The position numbers and the translations under genes are program-made. From an uncultured Gammaproteobacteria bacterium (GTDB lineage Bacteria > Patescibacteriota > Microgenomatia > UBA10105 > UBA927): a DNA stretch of 55,395 nucleotides. The notes beneath the pieces are model-generated. The model was not told the origin of the DNA, did not search any database, and saw nothing but the letters and a program-made list of their open reading frames with translations. The stretch spans positions 1 through 55,395 of the forward strand of contig CAYIBX010000005.1 in assembly GCA_964361785.1 (NCBI GenBank). Reading direction: 5' to 3'. Positions within the stretch are counted from its first letter, which is position 1. Every line of letters starts with the position of its first letter. Shown here piece by piece: positions 11,308 to 14,249 of the stretch.

Positions 11308-11489
11308 CGTTTAACTAAAAGAGAGCGAATGGACTTGCAGGTAACCGATTCTCCCTCAAGTTTTGTAGTTCGGAATATGAGTTCCGGCATAAATGCACGA
11401 AATAGGGATAAAAGAGATTGTTTACTCTGCTTTGCTTTTCGAAAGCTCTTATATCGTCTCTGTAACGTAGTTCGTTGCTTGACTGTCAT
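11304..11489 (-). CDS. Small protein, candidate VbhA-like Fic antitoxin
   Basis: 61 aa containing TTKLEG, which fits the (S/T)xxxE(G/N) Fic-inhibitory motif; TATACT -10 just upstream. Confidence 0.5.
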   Translation of the reverse strand: MTVKQRTTLQRRYKSFRKAKQSKQSLLSLFRAFMPELIFRTTKLEGESVTCKSIRSLLVKR

Positions 11490-11636: not shown

Positions 11637-12845
11637 TTACTTTTTAATAACTTTAAGAATCGTATGGGGTCCAATATTTATTATATCATTATTATTTAGG
11701 AGAGTGCCATCATTTTCTCTTAGCAATGTTGAGTTGTTTATGTCTATGCTTCCTGATGTAATCAAACGTTTCACTTCAGACTTGCTTTTGTTGTATGGAG
11801 CAGCCCCGAGTGCTTCATATATGGTTGCATTGCTTATTAATACAACAGGTTTTGCAATAGCTGCTTTTGCTGATACGGTTTGTTGCGTGGTGTGTGAGAA
11901 GGCTTGTTCAAACGAACATTGTGCTCTTTCAGCATCCATTTCTGAATTAAATGATTTCGTAAGCTCAAAGGCTAAGCGTTTTTTCCATACCATAGGGTTA
12001 TCCCCTGCTTTTATTTTCTTTTTCATCGTATCTATGGCGTCCATGGGTGTATCAGTAAGTAACGTAAAACATGGGATGATTGCGTCGTCTCCCAAAGACA
12101 TAATTTTGCCATAAAAATCCGTTGGCTCGTCTGCAAGTCCTATGACGTTTCCCTCCGTTTTGCCAATTTTTGTACCCTTGCTATCAGTCAGAAGTGGCAC
12201 AGTCATTACAAATTTTTCTCTGTGTTGAATTTGAGAAACCAATTTTCTTCCCGCGATCATGTTAAACATTTGATCAGTCCCACCGAGTTCTAGATCGATG
12301 TTCATAGCCACTGAGTCGTACCCCACCATAAGGGGGTATAAAAATTCGTGAAGTCCGATTTGATCAGAGCGTTTGATTCTGGCTTGGAACATATCGCGTT
12401 CGATCATTTGTTGTACGGTGAAGTGTGACGCCAAGCGTATGACATCTGCAAATGATAGTTTTGATAACCATTCGTTATTAAACAATACTTCGACAGGATT
12501 ATCTCCATCAAATTTAAGTATTTTTGACGCTTGCCTTTGATATTCTTTTGCGTTTTCTAACACTTGCTCATGGGTAAGGATTGGTCGAGCATCTGCTTTC
12601 CCAGATGGATCGCCAATAGTTGCAGTAAAATCTCCAATAAGAAATATGACTTTGTGTCCTAATTCTTGGAATTTGCGTAATTTACGCATGGCGACGGAGT
12701 GTCCTATATGAAGTCGCGCGCCAGTAGGATCAAATCCTTGGTAGAGGCGAAGTTTTTGGTCGCTTCTTAAAACTTTTTCCAGCGCTTCTTTGCTTGGCAA
12801 TATTGTGTCTACGCCTCGAGATAATAAATGATCTATAGCATCCAT
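11637..12845 (-). CDS. tyrS: Tyrosine--tRNA ligase
   Basis: GFDPTGARLHIGH, GDFTATIGDPSGK, GGTDQMFN, KIGKT motifs; C-terminal S4-like domain. Confidence 0.96.
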   Translation of the reverse strand: MDAIDHLLSRGVDTILPSKEALEKVLRSDQKLRLYQGFDPTGARLHIGHSVAMRKLRKFQELGHKVIFLIGDFTATIGDPSGKADARPILTHEQVLENAKEYQRQASKILKFDGDNPVEVLFNNEWLSKLSFADVIRLASHFTVQQMIERDMFQARIKRSDQIGLHEFLYPLMVGYDSVAMNIDLELGGTDQMFNMIAGRKLVSQIQHREKFVMTVPLLTDSKGTKIGKTEGNVIGLADEPTDFYGKIMSLGDDAIIPCFTLLTDTPMDAIDTMKKKIKAGDNPMVWKKRLAFELTKSFNSEMDAERAQCSFEQAFSHTTQQTVSAKAAIAKPVVLISNATIYEALGAAPYNKSKSEVKRLITSGSIDINNSTLLRENDGTLLNNNDIINIGPHTILKVIKK

Positions 12846-12874
12846 AATTTTCTCCTTTACTATACCATAGTTAT

Positions 12875-13756
12875 TTAGCTATGAGTAGAAAGATCAATAA
12901 TAAATTGTATTTTCTCCGCGAGTGTTTCTTTTGGAATACGAATAAAGAGTGATTCAAACAGTCGCACGATGCTTCCCATATGATTGAGTGCCGCGCGAGC
13001 CATCTCATCATCTTTTCGTGTAGAGAAGAGATCGAGTTTTTCTTTCACATTTTCATTAGGTGATAAAAGTATTCGGGACTCCCCTTCTATAGAAATGTAG
13101 GGTGATGCTTTTGGACGATTACTATCAAAAGTTTTACCAGCTTTACAATGCAAAAATGATAACGGCAATGCATGAGCGTCACGAATTTGTGAGTCAAAAA
13201 ATCGTTCATCATGACCCTGCGGAATTGGATCATTATTGATGGACCAGCCAAGTTTGAGTCTGACATTTTTGACGTTCGTAAACCATGTCATATCTGCGAT
13301 TTCTTTTTGTAGGTATTGATTTGGCATATTTGGCATAGTTTCTAAGATGGTTTGAAATTGAGGGTCCGTATGAATATCAGAGCTTAAGATAACGGTAAAA
13401 TTTTTAAGACGCAGATTTCTTATAACTTTTATACAGGTAGATTTCATTTCGTTTGTGCGTTTTTGTATTATTTCATCGGTCATGAATGTATTTGTTCTCG
13501 CATGCTCATCTGCGATAAGTACAAAGATAGTATCGAGTGAGAGTTCTCGTTGCAATTTTTCGGCTAAAAAGAAAAAGGAAAGAATGTCAAAAGGGATGGC
13601 GGTAGCTGGCTCTTTACTGGTGCAGAGTCCGATGCCAAAAAATAATGATGGATTCACAGTGGACAAAAGCAAGTCCCAATCTATGAAATCCGACGAAAGA
13701 CCCTCTATAAAAAGTGGCTCTTCCTTTAGGATCGATAAAAGTTTTTCTTTTTTCAT
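12875..13756 (-). CDS. Uncharacterised class Ic aaRS-like (TyrRS/TrpRS-fold) protein with no HIGH motif
   Basis: FVLIADEHA, YLQKEIAD (YxxxQ/ExxD spacing), GHDE and KASPY occur in the same order as the TyrRS core motifs. Confidence 0.55.
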   Translation of the reverse strand: MKKEKLLSILKEEPLFIEGLSSDFIDWDLLLSTVNPSLFFGIGLCTSKEPATAIPFDILSFFFLAEKLQRELSLDTIFVLIADEHARTNTFMTDEIIQKRTNEMKSTCIKVIRNLRLKNFTVILSSDIHTDPQFQTILETMPNMPNQYLQKEIADMTWFTNVKNVRLKLGWSINNDPIPQGHDERFFDSQIRDAHALPLSFLHCKAGKTFDSNRPKASPYISIEGESRILLSPNENVKEKLDLFSTRKDDEMARAALNHMGSIVRLFESLFIRIPKETLAEKIQFIIDLSTHS

Positions 13757-13759
13757 AGG

Positions 13760-13844
13760 TGCTGAGACTAGGATTCGAACCTAGGAAGCTCTTTCGAGCG
13801 ACAGATTTACAGTCTGTAGCGATTGACCACTCCGCCATCTCAGC
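13760..13844 (-). tRNA. tRNA-Tyr(GTA)
   Basis: Cloverleaf with GCTGAGA/TCTCAGC acceptor stem, anticodon loop CTGTAAA, long variable arm, GTTCGAATC; CCA not encoded. Confidence 0.96.
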
Positions 13845-13852
13845 TTTTTAAC

Positions 13853-13910
13853 AAAAAAAACACCCGTGTACGTCCCCTTCAATAAAGAAAGAGATATACA
13901 AGGGTGTTTT
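13853..13910 (-). terminator. Intrinsic terminator of the Tyr T-box
   Basis: AAAACACCCTTGTATATCTCTTTC...GAAGGGGACGTACACGGGTGTTTTTTTT. Confidence 0.85.
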
Positions 13911-14185
13911 AGACAAACACGGTACCACCTTGTTTTACTAGGAGTTATGGATTTTTAGCCATAAAAAATCCCGCCGAGACGGGATAACCTAGTCTCATTT
14001 GTATGCTCCGCTTATGGCGACACATACATTCTGCTATTACGGGCGTATCCGGATTGACTTACTTTTATTTTCAGTCTTTCAGCTCGTGGAGGGTATTTCA
14101 AAAAATAAAATTCGGCAAGTCTTGCATCACCCGCTTGCTTTCTTTTTGTCACTTTTATCTTTTTACTTCAGTCTCCGTCAGTGCT
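13853..14185 (-). promoter_or_regulatory. Tyr T-box riboswitch
   Basis: Stem I with TGACGGAG...CTCCACGAG, AGTA and GAAA-TAC specifier (14093-14095); stem II; CAAGGTGGTACCGTG T-box (13918-13932); U-tailed terminator. Confidence 0.92.
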
Positions 14186-14207
14186 TTTCGTATTAACTTG
14201 TCGTTAG

Positions 14208-14249
14208 TTTATAGCACACGTTGTCATCGTTGTCAAACGACAGTACAAT
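14208..14249. promoter_or_regulatory. Overlapping divergent sigma70 promoters for the T-box leader and the PBP gene
   Basis: Minus strand TTGACA(14236-14231)-17 nt-TATAAA(14213-14208); plus strand TTGTCA(14221)-17 nt-TACAAT(14244-14249). Confidence 0.7.

Follow-up and report, generated by a model that had tools for sequence, protein, structure and literature searches.

On the minus strand of the window, by which we mean the whole 55,395-nt stretch of DNA analysed, a promoter, a T-box leader with a UAC specifier and an intrinsic terminator, a tRNA-Tyr(GUA) gene, a 293-aa open reading frame (ORF) and tyrS follow one another in that order (Table 1). All the parts named in the original prediction were located, and their order was found again in independent assemblies, indicating that it is more than chance. 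The promoter ahead of the leader is putative; it is missing from our promoter scan because the scan demands a T at the last position of the -10 box. A single aquifer metatranscriptome run yielded a 175-nt contig with 100% identity to positions 13481-13655, inside the ORF, plus a 36-nt tRNA-like piece, and contained no read coverage of the leader, the junctions or tyrS; it says nothing for or against transcription of the operon.

Table 1. Features of the tRNA-Tyr/tyrS locus, in the order of transcription
Feature	Position	Strand	Details
Putative sigma-70-type promoter	14208..14236	(-)	-35 TTGACA 14236-14231, spacer 17 nt, -10 TATAAA 14213-14208; sequence reading
T-box leader, Stem I to antiterminator, Tyr-specific	13897..14190	(-)	RF00230 match, 86.6 bits
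Specifier codon UAC (Tyr), specifier loop	14093..14095	(-)	covariance model (CM) alignment to RF00230 consensus
Conserved T-box sequence AAGGUGGUACCGUG	13918..13931	(-)	bulge UGGU 13927-13924
Intrinsic terminator	13853..13906	(-)	18-bp hairpin 13906-13861 and U8 13860-13853; RNAfold -23.5 kcal/mol
tRNA-Tyr(GUA), long variable arm, G1-C72, A73	13758..13844	(-)	ARAGORN; Rfam tRNA 60 bits
293-aa TyrRS-fold paralogue (P0001)	12875..13756	(-)	lacks HIGH and KMSKS; Tyr-poor
Extended -10-like element TGGTATAGT	12859..12867	(-)	13 nt upstream of the tyrS ATG; sequence reading
tyrS, bacterial-type tyrosyl-tRNA synthetase (P0002, 402 aa)	11637..12845	(-)	TIGR00234 338.9 bits; PF00579 238 bits

At the level of sequence and predicted fold, the leader is confirmed as a Tyr T-box. 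In a 701-nt search it matches RF00230 over the full model (1-219; E 2.4e-19), and it is the top of four RF00230 matches in the genome (E 8.9e-20). Its 86.6 bits nevertheless fall short of the Rfam gathering score of 93, which is why a gathering-threshold scan gives no entry for it; the CM alignment traces the shortfall to insertions in the Stem III region, and homologous leaders of the same operon in relatives score 93.9-119.9 bits (L019, L033, L040, L027, L011 and L039). The UAC specifier lies in Stem I, the genome encodes two tRNA-Tyr(GUA), and GAA-N-UAC is present in 20 of 20 aligned leaders. The UGGU bulge is complementary to A73-CCA, with a discriminator A in both tRNA-Tyr copies. Within the Rfam match the terminator's 5' strand and the antiterminator's 3' strand share sequence, so that the two structures compete; the terminator hairpin also appears in the minimum free energy structure of the whole leader (z = -3.99 against shuffles), and a scripted call found a hairpin plus U-run in 19/20 leaders. 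Between the U-run and the tRNA lie 8 nt (13852-13845), as originally estimated, and 12 of 19 loci have a U-run that stops 1-10 nt ahead of tRNA position +1. Such a gap leaves no space for a separate tRNA promoter, and the independent promoter that the original prediction had named as a counter-indication is absent from it.

At the distal end of the unit, the extended -10 of tyrS is conserved: the upstream regions of tyrS in relatives carry TGnTATAGT in 8 and TGnTATAGA in 4 of 12 cases, and an extended -10 also occurs in 9 of 22 ORF-tyrS spacers. The element may have promoter activity. It had been predicted that tyrS possesses both its own -10 and its own Shine-Dalgarno (SD) sequence; the former is borne out by the relatives, but the latter is doubtful for that transcript, since the predicted start site falls within or past the SD. 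Because tyrS has this conserved -10 whereas the tRNA and the ORF both lie behind the terminator, these two may be the most T-box-dependent products, in line with the suggestion that they are the main T-box targets.

The arrangement recurs among relatives. With a 19-row alignment of the ORF product as query for related loci, tRNA-Tyr(GTA) turned up at 32 of the 39 loci that contain a homologue, most of them with tyrS downstream, and a T-box lies ahead of the tRNA-Tyr/ORF pair in 19 of the 23 other distinct loci scanned (L007, 7/9 and 11/13 loci). With an nhmmer profile of the leaders, just 1 of 27 relatives showed a T-box no more than 1.5 kb from tyrS, a misleading figure because the T-boxes of these relatives sit 2.0-2.9 kb upstream of tyrS. 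In a survey of synteny of the kind proposed earlier, the layout is present in many related uncultured bacteria. The tight arrangement, in the form of a strict pattern (T-box core, 55-85 nt, tRNA-Tyr 5' end, anticodon loop), occurs in G000 only among 401 phylum-wide genomes, and since the pattern is exact and narrow and few close relatives are sampled, this bounds the frequency only loosely. In same-genus relatives whose leaders precede other cargo, the gene behind the tRNA has a normal SD, and 5 of 12 of these leaders lack a tRNA altogether, indicating that the tRNA is dispensable for T-box function.

The 293-aa product had been labelled an orphan; it is in fact a full-length TyrRS-fold paralogue. 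By sequence the relationship is faint: the protein scores 11.7 bits against PF00579 (cut-off 21.1; E 0.16) and 11.8 bits against NF006330 (cut-off 220), no Pfam family exceeds its cut-off, and a search of its profile against the sequences of solved structures gave nothing useful, with a single chance match at E 0.89. Its AF2 model (pLDDT 93), which contains a Rossmann catalytic fold and a C-terminal helical domain, retrieves TyrRS chains on top in Foldseek (E 1.4e-8), and VIA aligns 257 residues of it with A. pernix TyrRS (Z 19.8, rmsd 3.5, model residues 1-293) and finds other TyrRS and TrpRS chains at Z 12.6-19.8. In an hhalign comparison with a 12-sequence bacterial TyrRS alignment (E 5.7e-5), LHIGH is aligned with KEPATA and the KIGKT loop falls in a gap, a register that is uncertain given the weak profile alignment (probability 66%); no conserved HIGH-like or KMSKS-like string occurs in the 25-sequence family alignment. 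The protein therefore probably lacks adenylation activity. The family alignment contains 25 invariant residues and the invariant motifs PFD, ADxHAxxN, GHDERFFD and SPY. Tyr accounts for 2 of the 293 residues of the protein, the genome median being 3.6%, and only 9 of 550 long ORFs in the genome are equally Tyr-poor. The family comprises 345 cluster representatives at E <= 0.001, and those of its members that are named by source are all called 'hypothetical protein'.

One explanation of such a protein is that it is a non-catalytic partner or regulator, as HisZ is for HisG, either forming a pseudo-dimer with TyrRS (or, at some loci, with a truncated TyrRS-like protein) or binding Tyr or tRNA-Tyr as a starvation factor. 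Fusions of the paralogue domain to a true TyrRS, seen in 3 of the 150 representatives listed (P0067, P0075 and P0201), favour this explanation, although they could be gene-calling read-throughs of neighbouring genes; so do the fold match to the double-length TyrRS of Leishmania (Z 17.6), the up to four TyrRS-superfamily genes per operon in some loci, and the extreme Tyr-poverty, which suits a protein made during Tyr shortage. The 25 invariant residues, including GHDERFFD, however, suggest a catalytic or ligand site of the paralogue's own. From a complex prediction of TyrRS residues 1-325 with the paralogue (score 0.00, mark 0.32) no conclusion is drawn. We hold the partner or regulator role to be a possible but tentative assignment. 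Like other catalytically altered class-I aaRS paralogues, namely the cyclodipeptide synthases (CDPSs) and, by what is generally reported, the Leishmania pseudo-dimer and HisZ, the paralogue combines a synthetase fold without HIGH/KMSKS chemistry with genomic linkage to a cognate tRNA and synthetase; it differs from all three in having its own invariant motifs.

The junction between the tRNA and the paralogue is tight. In the window the ATG begins 1 nt after the CC of the tRNA. Among 28 non-redundant loci, 18 have at most 2 nt between the tRNA and the start codon, the usual junction being GCAC(C)-U-AUG; in L038 one A belongs to both the encoded CCA and the AUG, and six loci with longer tRNA-ORF spacers carry purine-rich SD-like stretches. 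The short distance suggests that processing of the tRNA 3' end would create a near-leaderless mRNA. Start codons abutting tRNA 3' ends, with tRNA excision yielding leaderless mRNAs, reportedly characterize the mitochondrial tRNA punctuation described by Ojala et al. in 1981; unlike the mitochondrial case, the present one concerns a free-living or episymbiotic bacterium and one junction behind a riboswitch, at which excision of the tRNA would have that effect. RNase P RNA and a CCA-adding-enzyme family gene are present in the genome, and in most of its 46 tRNA genes the CCA end is not encoded. A search for RNase Z (TIGR02651) at E <= 1e-3 gave no match in this 100%-complete genome, which does encode MBL-fold proteins of beta-CASP and other types, among them a ComEC-like protein of 304 aa and a beta-CASP RNase of 449 aa.

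The same junction invites a more radical explanation, in which the tRNA is RNA punctuation and nothing else: cuts by RNase P and a 3' nuclease would remove the leader and create a leaderless paralogue mRNA, and decoding would be irrelevant. In addition to the ACC-U-AUG junctions, this would account for the degenerate tRNA copies in L043, G014 and G004, which retain the acceptor stem and T arm only, that is, the minimal substrate of RNase P and RNase Z, and for an identical junction after tRNA-Trp in contig C3. Against it, an ARAGORN-complete tRNA-Tyr with a GUA anticodon is present in 32 of 39 loci and its stems vary by compensating changes, a sign of selection on the tRNA as a whole; the window copy is also 88-91% identical to the stand-alone, unlinked tRNA-Tyr genes of relatives. 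A tRNA that serves solely as punctuation is rather doubtful, and we favour one that acts both as a gene and as a processing signal.

The original prediction had interpreted the arrangement as positive feedback or cis-sensing, the ligand being the first product of the regulated transcript and induction self-amplifying. The tRNA behind the terminator does have the GUA anticodon and A73 that the T-box needs, on a bacterial-type cloverleaf, the anticodon loops stay intact across diverged loci, and with a gap of 8 nt the regulated tRNA would arise by read-through only. By the known T-box mechanism, however, the terminator acts co-transcriptionally and the decision falls before the downstream tRNA is made, so that cis-sensing is mechanistically implausible; moreover, the gene encodes CC followed by U and lacks the CCA, so that pairing with UGGU would be possible only for a processed, CCA-repaired tRNA acting in trans. 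Nor is the regulated copy the sole source of ligand, since a check for other copies found a second tRNA-Tyr(GUA) elsewhere in the genome with its own TATAAT. The co-induced TyrRS would charge the new tRNA, and some relatives keep the T-box with the tRNA lost, mutated in the anticodon (G008) or cut to acceptor stem and T arm. Positive feedback in trans is possible, but as an explanation of the arrangement as a whole the self-amplifying reading is unlikely.

Less probable still is that the paralogue is an aminoacyl-tRNA-dependent enzyme, CDPS-like or the partner of a Fem-type transferase, that uses Tyr-tRNA-Tyr supplied by the operon. A class-Ic fold without ATP signatures is what CDPSs have, the gene is closely linked to tRNA-Tyr and tyrS, and in one listed representative the paralogue domain is fused to a PF13480 GNAT/FemAB-like domain. 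CDPS chains match the model at Z 8.9-12.5, but these matches are mostly limited to the Rossmann part, residues ~13-208, and lie well under the full-length TyrRS/TrpRS matches (Z 15-19.8), the paralogue keeping the full TyrRS length with the C-terminal helical domain; CDPS identity was ranked low on these grounds. The lack of a Pfam match over cut-off also speaks against such an enzyme, and a product that consumes Tyr during Tyr-tRNA shortage would be counter-intuitive. Transcription of tRNA-Tyr from a promoter of its own, independently of the T-box, for which the A/T-rich GTTAAAAA ahead of the tRNA might be adduced, is very improbable in view of the gap of 8 nt (1-10 nt in most loci), the TTTTGT at tRNA positions -12 to -7 in place of a -10, and the clear TATAAT boxes that stand-alone tRNA-Tyr genes have and the regulated copy lacks.

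We therefore propose, with a probability of roughly 65%, that a Tyr-specific transcriptional T-box attenuator governs a polycistronic precursor made up of a tRNA that is both gene and processing signal, a leaderless paralogue message, and tyrS with its own -10. This proposal builds on the elements, their order, spacing and conservation, and on the fold and composition of the paralogue. Uncharged tRNA-Tyr would stabilize the antiterminator in trans, allowing RNA polymerase to pass the terminator and to transcribe, in order, a complete tRNA-Tyr(GUA), the Tyr-poor TyrRS paralogue without HIGH/KMSKS, and tyrS. The tRNA would serve in two ways. It would supplement the other tRNA-Tyr gene with an inducible one, and it would direct processing: the RNase P cut would remove the T-box leader, and cleavage of the 3' end at or beside the discriminator, followed by CCA addition, would leave an mRNA with its AUG no more than 3 nt from the 5' end. 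Translation of the paralogue would use this leaderless or near-leaderless message, and tyrS would be expressed at a basal level from its conserved extended -10, with read-through adding to it.

The T-box mechanism is known from the work of Henkin and Grundy, and the tyrS leader of Bacillus subtilis is an example of RF00230. The present leader resembles it in the UAC of the Stem I specifier loop, the UGGU bulge matching A73-CCA, the mutually exclusive antiterminator and terminator, and the inclusion of tyrS in the regulated unit. Unlike in B. subtilis, the first gene past the terminator is the cognate tRNA and not a protein gene, a TyrRS paralogue stands between the tRNA and tyrS, and tyrS has an extra conserved -10. 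According to a survey of T-box targets, these comprise ligases, transporters and biosynthesis genes, with 8% others, and the available part of its text contains no occurrence of 'tRNA gene' (PMC2494555). A close parallel, as far as the available part of the article goes, is the tRNA-Trp(A73)-ORF1-TrpRS-A operon of CPR bacteria (Mukai et al. 2017, PMC5370408), in which a second cognate tRNA is likewise followed by an aaRS-like ORF and a class-Ic synthetase in Microgenomates-type CPR, and the proteins lack the cognate amino acid, as the paralogue nearly does in the Tyr locus; that text has no occurrence of T-box and does not mention the tRNA-AUG junction. Unlike those operons as described there, the present one is a Tyr system whose tRNA has bacterial identity (G1-C72, long arm) and whose ORF has a clear TyrRS fold. 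The genome analysed here has a Trp cassette as well, with 0 Trp in its 292-aa and 393-aa ORFs and the same ACC-U-AUG junction; the Tyr-locus ORF family and the Trp ORF1 family align weakly in hhalign (E 0.005). A literature search, covering few subscription journals, returned no T-box-controlled tRNA gene, no account of the paralogue family and no bacterial leaderless mRNA made via tRNA processing, nor did the parts available of PMC4681348 and PMC7778990 contain any of these.

More speculatively, the Tyr and Trp loci may exemplify starvation modules of ultra-small Patescibacteria, in which a T-box is followed by the cognate tRNA, a leaderless aaRS-like protein nearly free of the amino acid concerned, and the aaRS itself. 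The mRNA would be translatable only by way of tRNA punctuation, read-through would replace the tRNA sequestered by the leader, and the pseudo-synthetase would represent a novel type of starvation factor with tyrosine or tRNA-Tyr as its target. We put this forward tentatively; if it is true, replacement of the sequestered tRNA would matter in cells where each tRNA is present in no more than tens of copies.

The genes that T-boxes are known to switch are those of synthetases, transporters and biosynthesis. A T-box with the gene of its own ligand as first product extends this range by one class, and the feedback topology built into it is open to direct tests. The tRNA-AUG junction, which is conserved, would exemplify bacterial tRNA punctuation giving rise to a leaderless mRNA, so that a single transcript would unite control by a riboswitch, maturation of a tRNA and initiation of translation. 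The paralogue family, being genetically tied to tRNA-Tyr and TyrRS, thereby gives biochemistry a defined target, in a phylum whose regulation is little understood.

The promoter, T-box leader with UAC specifier, terminator, tRNA-Tyr(GUA), 293-aa ORF and tyrS named in the original prediction are every one correct. The proposed scan with RF00230 matched the leader over its full length; this match falls below the family's gathering score of 93, so a default Rfam scan does not show it, and the promoter is absent from the listing of our promoter scan, which demands T at the last base of the -10 element. The 5' strand of the terminator also belongs to the antiterminator, and the fold of the entire leader has z = -3.99. 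The tRNA gene encodes CC and then U at its 3' end.

Features of the locus and of other contigs (C numbers) of the same genome
Feature	Position	Strand	Remarks
Promoter -35, TTGACA	14236-14231	minus	predicted, sigma-70-type; 17-nt spacer to -10; read from sequence
Promoter -10, TATAAA	14213-14208	minus	read from sequence
T-box leader	13897-14190	minus	RF00230, whole model length, 86.6 bits, E 2.4e-19
Specifier UAC	14095-14093	minus	RF00230 CM alignment
Conserved T-box sequence AAGGUGGUACCGUG	13931-13918	minus	its UGGU fits A73-CCA
Terminator hairpin, 18 bp	13906-13861	minus	-23.5 kcal/mol, then U8
tRNA-Tyr(GUA)	13844-13758	minus	first base 8 nt past U-run
ORF, 293 aa	ATG 13756-13754, end 12875	minus	ATG directly after CC-U of tRNA gene
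ORF-tyrS spacer, 29 nt		minus	holds TGGTATAGT (12867-12859) and AAAGGAG
tyrS	12845-11637	minus	TIGR00234, 338.9 bits
Hydrophobic small ORF, ~36 aa	11525-11635	minus	begins 1-2 nt past tyrS stop codon; then -10-like TATACT ahead of next gene at 11489
Second tRNA-Tyr(GUA)	C33:5961-6049		TATAAT upstream
Trp cassette	C3:7855-10960	minus	outside the window
tRNA-Ser	C42:1295-1380		unusual anticodon ACU (ARAGORN)
tRNA-Ile	C13:12149-12221		unusual anticodon UAU (ARAGORN)
Weak T-box match, 35 bits	C35:7931-8111	minus	directly upstream of 953-aa ORF with IleRS-looking N-terminus
Weak T-box match, 25 bits	C24:12896-13081	minus	upstream of ORFs of 478 and 417 aa

The ORF had been regarded as an orphan enzyme; structural comparison identifies its product as a TyrRS-fold paralogue, although Pfam and NCBIfam give TyrRS matches below threshold only. 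Its AF2 model is confident (pLDDT 93, pTM 0.93) and retrieves TyrRS chains at the top of a Foldseek search (E 1.4e-8); an independent structure search aligned residues 1-293 with archaeal/eukaryal-type TyrRS (Z 19.8), ahead of TrpRS (Z about 17), bacterial TyrRS (Z 15-16) and cyclodipeptide synthases (Z 9-12.5, Rossmann part only), and a protein-atlas search was concordant. In the hhalign comparison of the family with TyrRS (E 5.7e-5, probability 66%) HIGH is unmatched and the KMSKS loop lies opposite a gap. The family has 25 invariant residues, among them the only two Tyr in the 293-aa protein. Tyr makes up at most 1.0% of 20 of the 25 aligned members, compared with a genome median of 3.6% and 1.7% in TyrRS, and only nine of 550 long ORFs contain as little as this one; so low a content fits synthesis while Tyr-tRNA is scarce. 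Among the matches listed, three representatives carry the domain fused to a true TyrRS, and in one the fusion partner is a PF13480 GNAT domain. It seems likeliest that the protein is a putative partner of TyrRS or a Tyr/tRNA-binding starvation factor; a putative aminoacyl-tRNA-dependent enzyme is less likely.

Homologues of the ORF number 59 at E <= 1e-3 in a word-indexed search and 345 cluster representatives in an exhaustive one (255 at E <= 1e-10), the named ones coming from Gottesmanbacteria and Saccharibacteria, which places the window's genome among the Patescibacteria (CPR); five of 60 relatives' genomes carry one, strong in three. ORF-bearing loci were found in species genomes (11) and metagenomes (22). 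tRNA-Tyr(GTA) is present in 32 of the 39 loci listed (duplicates counted), just upstream of the ORF in all but two, with tyrS downstream in most; the seven tRNA-less loci comprise three that begin inside the ORF, one partial ORF only, two distant homologues and one tRNA remnant (L043). Rfam places a T-box before the tRNA in 19 of 23 distinct loci (L007, 7/9 and 11/13 in three scans), with scores up to 119.9 bits. Of the other four, L016 has no upstream DNA, L025 shows the T-box core motif at its extreme edge, and L041 and L032 gave no Rfam T-box match at E <= 0.01. GAA-N-UAC occupies the same position in all 20 leaders read, and a script found a hairpin with U-run in 19 of 20 leaders, that of L040 being visible by eye; the terminator stems vary in sequence and keep their pairing. 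The U-run ends 1-10 nt before the first tRNA base in 12 of 19 loci and 131-1539 nt before it in six, where inserted small ORFs or another paralogue intervene. A separate promoter for the tRNA, past the terminator, would have spoken against control by the T-box; neither the 8 nt of the window nor the gap in most loci leaves room for one. The arrangement is conserved in related loci; a strict pattern search of 401 phylum genomes found it in tight form in only one. Operons L086 (genome G005), L014, L015, L025, L031 and L042 hold additional TyrRS-superfamily genes. One type, between paralogue and tyrS, encodes a bacterial-type TyrRS catalytic domain of ~310 aa that lacks the C-terminal S4 portion (33-37% identity with TyrRS; PF00579, 210 bits); L086 and L014 have a second distant paralogue upstream of the tRNA, and up to four such genes stand behind one T-box.

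Among 28 non-redundant loci, 18 have their first in-frame start at most 2 nt past the ARAGORN tRNA end, the junction almost always reading GCAC(C)-U-AUG; the same junction is seen by eye in L019 and the L043 remnant, and in L038 the A of the encoded CCA is the A of AUG. The conserved N-terminus, with NEPL ~12 residues in, confirms these AUGs as the genuine starts. SD-like purine runs occur in six loci with longer tRNA-ORF spacers, and the window junction has no place for one. We infer that tRNA 3' maturation would yield a leaderless or near-leaderless ORF mRNA (1-3 nt leader), CCA then being added to the released tRNA. The window's genome (1.11 Mb, 42 contigs) speaks for such processing with an RNase P RNA (65 bits, E 7e-20), a gene of the CCA-adding-enzyme family and ~36 of 46 tRNA genes without encoded CCA; against it, RNase Z was not found in this 100%-complete assembly, where the search brought up only beta-CASP and other MBL-fold proteins.

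A check for further copies showed that two of the 46 tRNA genes are tRNA-Tyr(GUA) by ARAGORN. Both carry A73, so either can serve as T-box ligand. Cis-sensing by the downstream tRNA, one of two mechanisms originally offered, is mechanistically implausible, since the order of events and the lack of an encoded CCA speak against it. Uncharged tRNA-Tyr would act on the T-box in trans; the positive feedback offered as the other mechanism is possibly inherent in the layout in this form, and would be damped by the constitutive tRNA-Tyr copy and the co-induced TyrRS.

Among 12 relatives, eight have TGnTATAGT 11-14 nt ahead of the tyrS ATG and the remaining four TGnTATAGA; a matching -10 element occurs in nine of 22 ORF-tyrS spacers, and six others, 11-14 nt long, have none. 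This conserved predicted -10 supports the proposal that tyrS could be expressed independently of the T-box. For a transcript from this -10 the SD also credited to tyrS is doubtful, because a start ~7 nt downstream would lie in or after the SD and leave a very short leader. No terminator separates the upstream genes from tyrS, so read-through should still add to its expression.

The same genome contains a Trp counterpart (L101), in the order T-box-like leader and terminator, two small ORFs, tRNA-Trp(CCA), a 292-aa ORF without Pfam match and a 393-aa PF00579 TrpRS-like protein. The leader is degenerate (19.7 bits in the genome scan, not recovered in a later scan), with the core motif visible. 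The tRNA carries A73 and meets the 292-aa ORF at ACC-U-AUG, like the Tyr locus, and both proteins are devoid of Trp; a second tRNA-Trp, on C25, has G73. The cassette matches the tRNA-Trp(A73)-ORF1-TrpRS-A operons of CPR described by Mukai et al. (PMC5370408), a paper in which no T-box is mentioned. Our literature search, incomplete in coverage, turned up neither a T-box-controlled tRNA gene nor the ORF family.

The window's linked tRNA-Tyr is 88-91% identical to relatives' stand-alone genes and about 70% to linked ones, a pattern that suggests recent replacement or conversion. Judged by their identity to the window enzyme, TyrRS enzymes of the same genus form two classes (58-63% vs 42-44%), and the closest (68%) belongs to another genus in which the paralogue is also present; this hints that the whole cassette may have been transferred or replaced. 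tyrS was found in 38 of 41 genomes, and in 12 of these the same strand carries a T-box 2.0-2.9 kb upstream of it. Behind the terminator of these 12 ORF-less loci stand four tRNA-Tyr(GUA), one Tyr-like tRNA (L079, G008) whose anticodon is GUU and which has a duplicated 5' fragment, two remnants and, in five, no tRNA. The remnants, just past the terminator (L076, G014; L078, G004), consist of acceptor stem and T arm without anticodon arm, as does that at the linked tRNA's place in L043 (750-842). The cargo that follows, each with a normal SD and with tyrS afterwards, comprises a methyltransferase with a Cys/Met PLP enzyme or MetE-like protein, a HAD protein with a nucleoside hydrolase, prephenate dehydrogenase, or an aminotransferase. 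The T-box-linked tRNA is a lineage feature that has been lost repeatedly and is kept almost always where the putatively leaderless paralogue follows.
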